From positions 1 to 10,447 of the forward strand of contig JBLFWS010000118.1 in NCBI GenBank assembly GCA_047611865.1: a DNA stretch of 10,447 nt. The letters run 5' to 3'. The notes under the pieces were generated by a model. It was not told the DNA's origin. It was given only the letters and a program-made list of their open reading frames with translations, and did no database searches. The stretch comes from Chlamydiales bacterium. GTDB lineage: Bacteria > Chlamydiota > Chlamydiia > Chlamydiales > JBDQID01. Position 1 is the stretch's first letter. Each line of letters starts with the position of its first letter. The translations under genes and the position numbers were made by a program. Shown here one piece after another: positions 4,555 through 7,464 of the stretch.

Positions 4555-4560
4555 TATAAC

Positions 4561-4589
4561 CCCCCGTCCTTTAGGGCGGGGGATATTTT
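4561..4589 (+). terminator. GC-rich hairpin after katG, probable intrinsic terminator
   Basis: CCCCCGTCC-TTTA-GGGCGGGGG (4561-4582) 6 nt after the stop, followed by ATATTTT. Confidence 0.6.
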
Positions 4590-4650
4590 GGATAAGAGTT
4601 TCGATCCCCTCCCAAAGAAACAACTGGGAAAAGCTGCCTTGCCTCAGATT

Positions 4651-4704
4651 TTCAGAACTTTTAACTGGAATAGCCTTGCTGAGAACACAAATTTAAATGG
4701 ATAA
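4651..4704 (+). repeat. Cassette-boundary repeat, copy A (reads FRTFNWNSLAENTNLNG*)
   Basis: 4651-4696 matches 6239-6284 at 39/46 nt without gaps, with mostly synonymous or conservative codon changes. Confidence 0.85.
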
Positions 4705-4709
4705 AAATT

Positions 4710-5216
4710 ATGTTTGAAAAAACTTTGTTATTTTCATTCTTATCAATGATTCTTATATGTTCTGGCTGTTCCCTCAAAACTGAAAACCCAGAAATATTTC
4801 AAAGATTCTCTCCATGTCCCAACAGCCCTAAGTGCGTTAGCAGTGTGAGTTCCAAAAGTGACCATTTCATTGATCCCATAACTTACACAGGCACAGCAAA
4901 TCCCATGGAAAGACTTTCTGAAATTATGAAAGAAATGCCAAGGGTTAAAACTATAACAGAAGAAGAAGATTACCTACATTATGAGGTCCGATCTATATTT
5001 TTTCGCTTCGTCGATGATGTTGAGTTCTCTCATGATAAAAAAGCTGGACTCATACACATAAAATCAGGTGCTGGAATAGGATATTATGATTTTGGCGTAA
5101 ACCGAAGAAGACTAGAAAAAGCCCGAAAAGAGTTTAACAATAGACTTACAAACGACATGCATAATGCCAAATCTTTAATTAATTCCTCACTCATTGAATC
5201 TGGGAAGGACGCTTAA
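4710..5216 (+). CDS. DUF1499-family putative lipoprotein, 168 aa
   Basis: Hydrophobic signal ending in LICSGC; motifs PCPNSPKCVSS, FRFVDDVEF and GYYDFGVNRRR are typical of DUF1499. Confidence 0.85.
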   Translation: MFEKTLLFSFLSMILICSGCSLKTENPEIFQRFSPCPNSPKCVSSVSSKSDHFIDPITYTGTANPMERLSEIMKEMPRVKTITEEEDYLHYEVRSIFFRFVDDVEFSHDKKAGLIHIKSGAGIGYYDFGVNRRRLEKARKEFNNRLTNDMHNAKSLINSSLIESGKDA

Positions 5217-5219
5217 GCT

Positions 5220-5756
5220 CTATTTCACCTTGTTATAAGCCTCAAGAAATTGTTGAAACTTTTCTAAGTGGCCTTCTTTTTTTGACCACTTTTGCAATTC
5301 ATCAAAATTCACCTCGGCAACTTCCAAGCAAATATCAATCGCTTGCTCCAAACCCTGCCTATCTCCCCAATGATAAAAACTGGCAAGACGGTCTTTAACA
5401 CTATCCACAGGACGAAGCATTTTCACAGTACCCATAGCGGTCTTAACATTGGAAAACTTATGAATGGCCTCATCACCCACAGCAACTGGTGGAGAGACAA
5501 ATTCCACAATCCATGGACAGTCTTTATGGCGAAAGTATTTTGAGACTTCTTCAAATTCACACTTTTTTAATACCTTTTTAACCTTTCGAAGATCCTCATA
5601 AGTGACAAAGTCAAGGTCATGAGATTGATACCGATTCTTTGAGTAAATCGTTACGCACGCACCTCCTACTAGAATGATCTCAATTCCCTCTTTCTGTAAT
5701 TCTTCTGACAAATGTCCTGCTAAATCTTCTAAGCTAATATTCTTCCAGTCAGGCAT
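5220..5756 (-). CDS. Putative nucleotidyltransferase (pol-beta superfamily, AbiEii/MNT-like), candidate toxin, 178 aa
   Basis: IILVGGACVTIYS...SHDLDFV gives the GG...DxD NTase signature. The start overlaps the upstream gene's stop (TAATG at 5758-5754). Confidence 0.75.
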   Translation of the reverse strand: MPDWKNISLEDLAGHLSEELQKEGIEIILVGGACVTIYSKNRYQSHDLDFVTYEDLRKVKKVLKKCEFEEVSKYFRHKDCPWIVEFVSPPVAVGDEAIHKFSNVKTAMGTVKMLRPVDSVKDRLASFYHWGDRQGLEQAIDICLEVAEVNFDELQKWSKKEGHLEKFQQFLEAYNKVK

Positions 5757-6091
5757 TATAGAGGCTTTCCTTTTCGTCGAGGGCGTTTTCGATCCGAAAT
5801 TTCATAATACTTTAAACGAAATTCTTCTGGCAAAAATGAATAGGCTTTTTCAAGAAATGCCTTAAGCTCTTTAAGCATTGAATAGCGTGGATTAAACTGG
5901 TAAAGCCTCGTTTTCCCTTGCATTTGACTAACAATAACTCCTCCCTTCTCGAGTCTTTCCAATGCCTTTTGAAAACCAAATAAGGACATTTTGAATACAC
6001 GGCTAAGCTCAGAAGCGTATGTTTTCTCATTCTTTAATAGATAGAATAAGACCTTCTCAATAACAGGATTTCCAAATAAACCCTCAAGCAT
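5756..6091 (-). CDS. Winged-helix (ArsR-like) DNA-binding protein, candidate antitoxin/autoregulator, 111 aa
   Basis: YASELSRVFKMSLFGFQKALERLEKGGVIVSQMQGKTRLYQFNP is an HTH plus wing; basic C-terminus; translationally coupled to the NTase gene. Confidence 0.8.
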   Translation of the reverse strand: MLEGLFGNPVIEKVLFYLLKNEKTYASELSRVFKMSLFGFQKALERLEKGGVIVSQMQGKTRLYQFNPRYSMLKELKAFLEKAYSFLPEEFRLKYYEISDRKRPRRKGKPL

Positions 6092-6141: not shown

Positions 6142-6217
6142 GGCGAAGCAAATAAATCTAGTGTTTCAGATATATAAACCGTTATAAATAAGAATAATAC
6201 ATGTAAGAATGGAAAAG

Positions 6218-6307
6218 AAATGGGGGCGGTTGGACGAATTCAGAACTTTTGACTGGAGTAGCATTGCTGAAAACACGAGGTTAATCAGTTCTATTTTAGC
6301 AGCGTAA
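6218..6307 (+). repeat. att-like core plus coding tail, copy B (KWGRLDEFRTFDWSSIAENTRLISSILAA*)
   Basis: AAATGGGGGCGGTTGGAC (6218-6235) matches 7098-7115 at 17/18. 6239-6284 matches 4651-4696. The frame is open to TAA 6305-6307, 2 bp from the convergent toxin stop. Confidence 0.8.
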
Positions 6308-6309
6308 TT

Positions 6310-6657
6310 TTACGGGTGGGCTGAAATTGAAATAATTGTAATTTCCTTCTTTTCTGGGCCGTAACACCAAAATACTCTGTAAGCAGCTGGAGTCTTATTC
6401 TGAGCATATGCTTCAAATACTTTTTGAGAAGAATCCCATGGATGCTCAAGCGAGGAATAAGGGTGAGTTTCTAAACCAGGATGTCTTGGATTTTCTCGCA
6501 GGTGTTTTAATGTTTTTCTCACCTGCTTGAAGAGCCCTTCCTGCCTTGAGCTTTTATTTTTTTGCTTTTTCTTTCTTTGAGCTTCTATCGTATTTGCTTG
6601 CTGTTCGAGTTCCAAATAAATCTCTTCAGCTTCATCAGTCCATTCTAGGTCAAACAT
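6310..6657 (-). CDS. RelE/ParE-superfamily-like putative toxin, 115 aa
   Basis: N-terminal FDLEWTDEAEE, LRENPRHPGLETH, and C-terminal YRVFWCYGPEKKEITIISISAHP fit the RelE-fold layout. Lies 15 bp downstream of an AbrB-like gene. Confidence 0.7.
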   Translation of the reverse strand: MFDLEWTDEAEEIYLELEQQANTIEAQRKKKQKNKSSRQEGLFKQVRKTLKHLRENPRHPGLETHPYSSLEHPWDSSQKVFEAYAQNKTPAAYRVFWCYGPEKKEITIISISAHP

Positions 6658-6672
6658 TCAGCCCCTTGTTTT

Positions 6673-6939
6673 TTACTCGTCGTCGTTGCCATTGTCATCC
6701 AAATTAATTACATTTTTCTTTAGACGGCCCTGCTTAGCTTGCTCCAGCCCTTTTAGAACTGACTCTTTAGCCTTCTTGTTTTTGTGAAGCCAAACTTCTC
6801 GTTCTGGTATTATGACTGCTTTTTCCAGAATAAATCGGCCTTCCATTTCTTCAGTTATGATATAACGCTCACCAGCATGTCGAGCACCTAAAGAGACCCT
6901 TCCTTTAGAGTCAACTGTGACATCGCCTAATGCTTTCAT
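6673..6939 (-). CDS. AbrB/MazE/MraZ-like (swapped-hairpin) putative antitoxin, 88 aa
   Basis: VTVDSKGRVSLG...GRFILEK AbrB-type motif; acidic C-terminus (LDDNGNDDE); AAGGAG SD at 6952-6947. Confidence 0.75.
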   Translation of the reverse strand: MKALGDVTVDSKGRVSLGARHAGERYIITEEMEGRFILEKAVIIPEREVWLHKNKKAKESVLKGLEQAKQGRLKKNVINLDDNGNDDE

Positions 6940-6968: not shown

Positions 6969-7014
6969 ATTATAGCACAAGTGGGCAGGTAAGTCAAGTG
7001 GGGCAATCCCACTT
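6969..7014 (-). promoter_or_regulatory. Strong promoter with repeated operator half-sites for the AbrB-RelE operon
   Basis: Minus strand TTGACT (6997-6992)-N17-TATAAT (6974-6969) with extended TGn. AAGTGGG at 6979-6985 and 6996-7002; inverted CCCACTT at 7008-7014. Confidence 0.8.
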
Positions 7015-7100
7015 AAAAAGCAACAGAAAGCTATTTCAGAACGATTAAGTCACTCTTTTTAAAGACAGTATAAAGAAAGATAGGATGATACAAGAGAAAA

Positions 7101-7126
7101 TGGGGCCGGTTGGACTCGAACCAGCG
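7101..7126 (-). other. tRNA 3'-end fragment (T-arm + acceptor strand), att-like site; not an intact tRNA
   Basis: Minus strand CGCTGG-TTCGAGT-CCAAC-CGGCCCC-A: canonical T-loop, one T-stem mismatch, 7-nt acceptor strand plus discriminator. No anticodon or D arm beyond 7126. Confidence 0.75.
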
Positions 7127-7464
7127 CAGACAGATGAAAAAGAAACTGGATTCAGCCTATCGCCTTCTAAACCAAGCAGCGGAAATGCTAAGTTTTAAAA
7201 TCCAAACTCTGTGTATACGGACTTCTGTCTACAAATCCGCTTCAAAACCACAACTCTCAAAAACAAACAATAATCTACAGTTGACATTCCCCTCAAAAGA
7301 GACTAAATATTTTCTTATCAGAGCTAGATGATGTAAGGCACACCTCTCTGAAGGAGATGTGTCTATTTTGGCTACTCAACAAAGACATTACTGGGAAAGA
7401 AAGGTCAATCGTAAAAATCAAGGGTTGAAATATTTAACAACGAATTCGCCTAGAAAGGGGAAAT

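Follow-up and report, generated by a model that had tools for sequence, protein, structure and literature searches.

We find that positions 6218–6307 of the window are best explained, at a probability of roughly 85%, as the orphaned element-side half of the attP site of a large serine recombinase family that inserts mobile elements where tRNA and tmRNA genes have their 3' ends. The window, i.e., the whole stretch of DNA that was analysed, is contig C118 in full (10,447 bp), and the genome bin is a MAG of 3.59 Mb in 272 contigs with 95.5% completeness. According to the proposed mechanism, attP would sit in the last ~28–30 codons of the recombinase gene, and the free (attP) form of the protein would end in ...W-G-R-L-D-x-F-R-T-F-D-W plus about 16–30 residues. 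Recombination with a tRNA or tmRNA 3' end would set the element beside that RNA gene and would part the tail from its gene, which would then read into the antisense of the tRNA (...WGRLDSNQRR...) or of the tmRNA (...WRWRESNSRP). The core, arm and tail would remain as a scar at the far end of the inserted DNA. Within this scar, the 15-nt core would mimic the tRNA end, and the 18-nt arm would have two jobs, serving as codons and, putatively, as protein-binding DNA.

The frame of this unit is continuous with that of intact recombinases, which have two kinds of ending. Furthermore, recombinase stop codons overlap tRNA or tmRNA genes, and the tails have a coding-type substitution pattern. The arm would represent the element-side half of the recombinase attachment (binding) site; as the other half-site showed no inverted counterpart of the arm, its role in binding is one that we infer. 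The tail may be important for recombinase activity.

Organization of the repeats in the window

The repeats, the cargo between them and the tRNA-side junction are arranged as follows.

4651–4701 (+): copy A, comprising the arm TTCAGAACTTTTAACTGG and a shortened tail of the same family (NSLAENTNLNG, then stop), without the tRNA-like core
4710–6091: cargo between copy A and site B, with a DUF1499 protein (+) and a nucleotidyltransferase-like and winged-helix pair (-), assigned by Pfam
6209–6307 (+): 32-codon ORF, from ATG at 6209 to TAA at 6305–6307 (translation)
6218–6235 (+): core of site B, AAA plus 15 nt that imitate the tRNA-Tyr 3' end (3' strands of acceptor and T-stem) in reverse complement
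6236–6238 (+): variable triplet GAA, separating core from arm
6239–6256 (+): 18-nt arm TTCAGAACTTTTGACTGG, reading F-R-T-F-D-W
6257–6307 (+): orphan C-terminal tail as found in the attP form of a large serine recombinase, SSIAENTRLISSILAA and stop
6310–6939 (-): operon of two genes (115 aa and 88 aa), the cargo that separates site B from the tRNA-side junction
7098–7131 (+, gene sense on -): decayed partial tRNA-Tyr copy at the tRNA-side junction, from comparison with the tRNA-Tyr of contig C147

The 6209–6307 ORF translates as MEKKWGRLDEFRTFDWSSIAENTRLISSILAA, followed by the stop. From stop to stop its frame spans just 39 codons and, as the first-pass annotation had described, the ORF ends 2 nt from the stop of the convergent ORF 6310–6657(-). 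The ATG at 6209 is probably fortuitous. Positions 6218–6307 consist of the 15-nt imitation of the tRNA-Tyr 3' end, the near-invariant 18-nt arm and a ~50-nt tail with its stop. In the recombinase frame the core reads K-W-G-R-L-D. It is identical to positions 7098–7115 at 17 of 18 nucleotides (94%), and it matches the genome's real tRNA-Tyr 3' end, located on contig C147, at 14 of 15.

Copy A, with the translation FRTFNWNSLAENTNLN, had been described as aligning with site B without gaps, and indeed does so at 85% identity (4651–4696 against 6239–6284). Lacking a core, it is an older or truncated scar. The copy A frame also continues the katG frame past the katG stop and its terminator hairpin at 4561–4582 (window 4555–4701), which is taken as coincidence.

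At the tRNA-side junction, positions 7099–7131 resemble the tRNA-Tyr on C147 over 33 nt (91%), with the likeness fading past ~31 nt. The junction reads KWGRLDSNQRR, the ending that is found on integrated recombinases, and aligns to the end of recombinase P0082. The KWGRLDSNQR ending that had been attributed to a tRNA-side core was recovered at 7098–7115, but what lies there is a decayed partial copy and not a tRNA gene: positions 7098–7131 were called as a tRNA by neither ARAGORN nor Rfam, and these analyses found no tRNA genes or Rfam RNA families in the window.

The genes around the repeats are katG, the DUF1499 gene, the nucleotidyltransferase-like/winged-helix pair, the two-gene operon, pntAB and an IS66 transposase gene; the names katG and pntAB are our presumptive reading of the ORF translations. 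A matching nucleotidyltransferase/winged-helix pair is present in a tRNA-Tyr array of another family (L018:3991–4680). The operon at 6310–6939 has a promoter-like site at 6997–6969(-). Its two genes had been called a toxin/antitoxin pair, and they are toxin-antitoxin-like by layout only, with no Pfam or NCBIfam match at the thresholds used.

A family of large serine recombinases owns the frame

We built a profile from 57 site peptides and ran it on a set of 1.84 billion representative proteins. This yielded 35 matches at E<=1e-3, all of which were short gene calls with the exception of one 528-aa repeat protein that matches part of the motif only, in five stretches. In at least 11 of the profile matches, the same frame contains a recombinase C-terminal region further upstream (...EKRQLLNLVFQNL...EPF..M.DYK..P..W). 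One match, P0004, has 83 longer homologues, which are large serine recombinases of ~495–550 aa, assigned to Chlamydiota or Rhabdochlamydiaceae wherever they are named. The Resolvase catalytic domain (PF00239), the Recombinase domain (PF07508) and the zinc ribbon (PF13408), the last with a coiled coil, identify the proteins as large serine recombinases; all three Pfam domains are present in P0042, P0055, P0039, P0082, L111 and L123. The C-termini of the 83 homologues were of the following kinds.

...WRWRESNS..., read off tmRNA: 37 of 83
...WGRLDSNQR..., antisense of tRNA-Tyr: 23 of 83
Read off another tRNA: 8 of 83
tRNA-Asn-like: 1 of 83
...W(G/R)(R/W)(L/R)D-x-FRTFDW-tail, in frame: 5 of 83
Truncated or other: 9 of 83

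A single frame through core, arm and tail forms the C-terminus of L111, P0042 and P0055. The last two (518 and 509 aa, respectively) are full-length FRTF-tailed homologues with all three domains, while L111 is an intact 514-aa recombinase ending in WGRLGRFRTFDWGSIAESVKLISSLLVA and a stop, for which the window counterpart is WGRLDEFRTFDWSSIAENTRLISSILAA and a stop. Over their last 28 residues, L111 and the window align without gaps, with 21/28 amino acids and 67/87 nucleotides identical and the stop in the same position. The first-pass annotation had proposed, from the window alone, that the core continues in frame into what is probably a recombinase's displaced C-terminus, and the homologous tail of intact L111 bears this out. 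It had also suggested W...D.FRTF..W and W...DSN.R endings on large serine recombinases; both occur among the 83 homologues, the former as the five FRTF-type and the latter as the 23 WGRLDSNQR-type proteins.

In 20 genomic loci, the recombinase stop was found inside a convergent tRNA-Tyr (5), tmRNA (5), tRNA-Asn (3) or tRNA-Leu (1) gene, and at the remaining six loci the end is tRNA-like but was not called by ARAGORN. Species-representative genomes, when scanned, provided a second set of 80 recombinase loci, 72 of them with the C-terminus in view. The check that had been suggested, for tail matches at recombinase C-termini beside tRNAs, gave a positive result in this set, with 43 of the 72 stop codons lying inside a convergent tRNA or tmRNA gene; FRTF tails were present at three loci, and no tRNA or tmRNA was called at 26. 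Twelve kinds of target were called among the 72, i.e., eleven tRNAs and tmRNA, where two tRNA-Thr calls represent read-through past tRNA-Tyr. Overall, the targets of the family include tRNA-Tyr, Asn, Gln, Leu, Glu and others, as well as tmRNA. Relatives at 39–52% identity are held by Patescibacteria. In complete elements the distal site, cargo, recombinase and tRNA follow one another in this order (G249:C46, 9.3 kb; G240:C134).

Residues 179–464 of P0042 align to the structure of the A118 integrase (4KIS/6DNW), and the swapped C-terminal residues fall beyond this aligned part. An AlphaFold2 model of the L111 recombinase (mean pLDDT 82.4, pTM 0.41) draws the tail as a helix; over the last four 10-residue blocks, mean pLDDT drops from 62 to 40, and the model therefore says nothing on docking. 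No description of the family turned up in the full-text literature searched.

A different large serine recombinase, 22–26% identical to the family, is encoded in the genome of the window itself (G000) at C94:7128–8861(-) (577 codons from stop to stop). Its frame runs through a convergent tRNA-Leu(caa) gene at 7203–7286(+), which is the same architecture in a second lineage.

The core and arm recur across genomes

In a DNA search of 41 related genomes, positions 6214–6264 were found at 85–97% identity in other families of the same order, and the translated unit was matched in 129 of 301 genomes of the order (six-frame search, E<=1). Related copies often occur several to a genome, on one strand and 0.6–3 kb apart, and arrays of the unit frequently lie beside tRNA-Tyr or tmRNA genes. 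The core and arm recur far above chance: their pattern had 30 matches in five related genomes and none for the reversed control.

For the alignment we used 62 distinct copies from 63 unique sites, leaving out L010:10847, in which 4 nt and not 3 separate core and arm. The core derives from, or mimics, the 3' end of the target gene, being the reverse complement of either the tRNA-Tyr 3' end (TGGGGGCGGTTGGAC; 40 of the 62 sites) or, in the remainder, the tmRNA 3' end (TGGAGGTGGAGAGAC). Core type tracks the anchor gene in L019 (tRNA-Tyr) and L009 (tmRNA), with the exception of L018, a tRNA-Tyr array that has tmRNA-type cores. Every position of the triplet between core and arm is variable over the 62 sites, whereas the arm, TTCAGAACTTTTGAYTGG, is 90–100% conserved at all positions except +14 (C/T), third codon positions included. 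This conservation at wobble positions, which holds across recombinases that are just 46–80% identical, points to constraint at the DNA level on top of coding.

Near-identical GNAT acetyltransferase cassettes were seen at an equal distance after the site in two different families (L009:5422–5895 and L018:9455–9931), suggesting that small cargo units travel with the site. Left flanks likewise recur within and between genomes, i.e., at L009 sites 5334, 6421 and 8521, at L010 sites 3160, 3634 and 12226, and at L018 8058–8084 and 10781–10807. A left-flank repeat, ...GGCTTTTAAATTTTGGTAACGT, is present in G018 and G011, and in G017 a 27-nt flank precedes both a site and tRNA-Tyr. A simple serial-insertion model does not account for these recurring left flanks.

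An ATG or TTG located one base before the core in 90% of sites opens a 10-codon frame (window 6217–6252 and the 62 sites; -19 to +13) that ends at the conserved TGA of the arm after TTT (UUU UGA context). This frame is probably a by-product of the tRNA-derived sequence. We had considered that a +1 frameshift at UUU UGA might connect such a mini-ORF with the tail, an idea that became superfluous once recombinase C-termini were found upstream in frame.

The tails evolve like coding sequence

Coding constraint on the tails had been suggested from the two copies in the window, and the wider comparison agrees. Six tail families with 19 members have no stops in the frame of the first-pass annotation, where the synonymous fraction is 0.32. 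The corresponding fraction is 0.11–0.15 in four other frames, and 0.31 in frame -1, which shares the wobble position but contains eight stops. In eight disjoint, and hence independent, tail pairs, the differences at codon positions 1, 2 and 3 numbered 18, 24 and 43, respectively (chi-square p=0.002 for codon-position bias; p=0.00075 for the third-position excess). By these measures the tails evolve like coding sequence, and the conserved tail appears to be under selection. Two results had initially pointed away from a long gene: all but two of the 150 listed matches (148) occupy open frames of 18–118 aa, and Pfam recognized no recombinase in 102 ORFs from ten array loci. The window tail and L019:7116–7029 are 79.5% identical over 88 nt; this likeness ends at the shared stop, and the cargo beyond is unrelated. 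The tail is thus conserved independently of its neighbouring cargo.

The copy in the window is an orphan

With the query used, neither the window nor the 272 contigs of the 95.5%-complete MAG yielded a recombinase of this family, and the tRNA-proximal end of the element in the window holds no cognate recombinase. This copy is therefore an orphan scar rather than a live element and, with the recombinase gone from the window, the ORF is a fossil rather than a working gene. No significant recombinase remnant was detected upstream of site B. One suggestive stretch there, VDVKAKQINLVFQ, was rejected (i-E 5 in the window; E 0.21 among the 63 site flanks). Across the arrays, significant recombinase remnants lie to the left of the site in only two of 63 cases. 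The recombinase-free cassettes may have accumulated by serial insertion and subsequent decay, by moving in trans, or through the action of the tyrosine integrases of G132 on the same sites.

The latter are proteins of 347–364 aa, with DUF3987-like primase genes behind them, whose genes lie directly beside core and arm sites, on the opposite strand:

L021:3682–4773 (-): tyrosine integrase (PF00589)
L039:3165–4256 (-): tyrosine integrase (PF00589)
L038:8777–9817 (+): tyrosine integrase (PF00589)

Since they adjoin the sites, a second type of enzyme or element may use the tRNA-Tyr imitation.

Alternative explanations

If the repeats were non-coding sites of tRNA-Tyr-specific tyrosine integrases, the open frame would be accidental. 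The three G132 integrases and their primase genes beside sites would agree with this, as would an arm whose wobble positions are as conserved as the others and the absence of any recombinase recognized by Pfam in the 102 ORFs neighbouring the sites at ten array loci. However, in L021 and L039, where this was measured, the tyrosine integrase gene occupies the other strand with its start ~315 nt away from the core, and hence cannot own the frame. In addition, intact serine recombinase ORFs traverse core, arm and tail, and the tails have a third-position excess and conserved stop positions. As the sole explanation, a non-coding tyrosine integrase site is already contradicted, and we regard this account as unlikely. 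A purely non-coding, att-like cassette boundary had been our main reading for a time, and was dropped once serine recombinase ORFs were seen to traverse the unit.

The first-pass annotation had also allowed that 6209–6307 might be a gene in its own right, encoding a 32-aa peptide from the in-frame ATG. The ATG at 6209, the coding-type substitution pattern and the 25–234-aa proteins that gene callers predicted on related copies speak for such a gene, yet the recombinase accounts for the coding constraint. Moreover, the start codon is not conserved: when compared with the window ORF, most related copies lack the in-frame ATG and often have a stop 1–3 codons before the W, and tmRNA-type cores have no start codon in frame. 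Upstream of the ORF, no promoter-like site was found on the + strand and no Shine-Dalgarno-like sequence was visible by eye before the ATG; nor did the peptide match Pfam or NCBIfam. We therefore consider a free-standing peptide very unlikely. Less probable still are folded, attC-like sites that delimit integron-type cassettes and recombine as single-stranded hairpins. Sites 0.6–3 kb apart on one strand, small cargo (toxin-antitoxin-like pairs, GNAT and Fic genes) and the same GNAT cassette after the site in two families are what such a system would produce, but neither strand of 6205–6310 or of 4630–4705 folds better than shuffled sequences (z +1.0 to +1.8). This folding control already contradicts attC-like sites. 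It is sequence and not structure that is conserved, and the 102 ORFs of the ten array loci yielded no tyrosine recombinase gene.

Position of the crossover

The putative place of strand exchange was sought in comparisons of GTCCA/TGGAC symmetry, T-stem covariation and paired junctions, in which host-specific covariation was observed at the tRNA-side junctions. We tentatively place the crossover at the left edge of the core, because tRNA-side cores co-vary with the host T-stem and because the G249 distal core differs from the host tRNA. Against the left edge, the attL/attR pair of G240 shares host-like bases. No joined (excised) form was seen in the contigs of four public runs, in three of which the locus was present; two of these three may be where it came from, and no RNA run was listed as containing it. 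In serine integrases, the zinc ribbon takes up a shifted position on attP as compared with attB half-sites. Opposite ...GGAC-TCGAAC in the tRNA, the arm has ...GGAC-GCAT-TCAGAAC, an offset that would be consistent with such a shift. In the Dehalococcoides study discussed below, a mid-T-loop crossover site was inferred in the part cited (PMC3146451).

Comparison with known systems

The closest precedent, by analogy, is found in the tandem islands of Dehalococcoides at the tmRNA gene (ssrA). In the sections of that study (McMurdie et al. 2011) on which we draw, the islands are bounded by repeats of the ssrA 3' end, a short conserved motif beginning TTCAG adjoins the repeat, and DsiB is a ~540-aa serine recombinase whose gene, dsiB, overlaps its att site (PMC3146451). 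In the same sections, islands that lack an integration module are interpreted as possibly cis-mobilizable, and the overlapping part is judged divergent and unlikely to be functional (PMC3146451). Judging by this description, the two systems are alike in having a serine recombinase, an att site overlapping its gene and tandem tmRNA islands. They differ, as far as those sections go, in that the present family has Chlamydiota hosts, Patescibacteria relatives and many tRNA targets besides tmRNA, and in that its tail, in the attP form, shows both a conserved FRTFDW motif and substitutions of the coding type. A small second recombinase was not noticed in the present family.

The integrase of phage Mx8 (IntP/IntX) has attP within its coding sequence, and integration makes a new int 3' end; according to the portion cited, the altered Int is reportedly still active with changed properties (PMC6070905). 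Unlike Mx8 Int, which is a tyrosine recombinase in that account, the frame owners here are serine recombinases and possess no tyrosine recombinase catalytic domain, so the resemblance is functional only. The archaeal SSV-type 'suicidal' integrases also have att inside the gene, and are described in the cited portion as tyrosine recombinases that integration splits and inactivates (PMC8371274). Here, in contrast to that description, integration exchanges nothing but the extreme C-terminal tail and leaves the domains for catalysis and DNA binding whole.

Repeated integration beside tRNA and tmRNA genes has been described for the tycheposons of Prochlorococcus, where, in the part of the preprint cited, it pushes older elements outward and leaves partial tRNAs and fragmented integrases (bioRxiv 10.1101/2020.12.28.424599). 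A tyrosine recombinase is given there for 910 of 937 tycheposons and a serine one for the rest, i.e., 27/937 large serine (bioRxiv 10.1101/2020.12.28.424599). Compared with the tycheposons as described in that part, the elements reported here differ in having attP embedded in the recombinase gene and a swapped tail, and in their host phylum. The relevant passage of the Islander paper has serine integrases as not known to target tRNA genes (PMC4383910).

Arrays of recombinase-free small cargo units with a recurring site are also a feature of integron cassettes and of CIMEs. Integrons contain cassette arrays in which small cargo units without their own recombinase are separated by a recurring attC site. 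Unlike attC, the site reported here is a piece of a serine recombinase gene plus a tRNA imitation, without folded structure; neither 6205–6310 nor 4630–4705 forms the imperfect palindrome, or single-stranded hairpin, of an attC site. CIMEs, or cis-mobilizable elements, are mentioned in the cited part of the Dehalococcoides study (PMC3146451).

New here are the breadth of tRNA targets, the spread over Chlamydiota and candidate-phyla bacteria and a conserved tail, apparently under selection, that is removed by integration. The serine recombinase account would name the enzyme for cassette arrays at tRNA and tmRNA genes 'with no integrase nearby' and would reveal a widespread serine recombinase family aimed at tRNA genes, with two unusual features, i.e., an att site inside its own gene and conservation of the very tail that integration removes. 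It would also make regulation of an integrase by an integration-dependent change of its own end, as in Mx8, testable for serine recombinases. Given that tRNA ends are conserved landing sites, the family could interest those who use serine integrases as tools.

A more speculative possibility, to which we give rather low odds, is that the exchange of tails is a built-in switch of recombinase activity or direction, linked to cassettes without a recombinase being moved in trans. The free-form tail (D-x-FRTFDW and an amphipathic helix) would then be needed for integration, or would tune it, and the tRNA-antisense residues replacing it after insertion would change the activity or direction of the enzyme. 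Were this so, the recombinase would carry a self-encoded memory of its integration state, either in addition to a separate directionality factor or in place of one and, if cassettes do move in trans, Chlamydiota and Patescibacteria would possess a tRNA-anchored gene-capture system.

Additional observations

The tmRNA gene of G000 (C108:10948–11352) lies 150 nt from a contig end, and a downstream array or repeat may have interrupted the assembly there. In the window, the AT-rich gap upstream of katG contains two nested inverted repeats of 25 and 26 nt (2049–2194; 85–88% complementary), near the IS66 transposase gene (282–1337, -). These inverted repeats may be the ends of a small mobile element.
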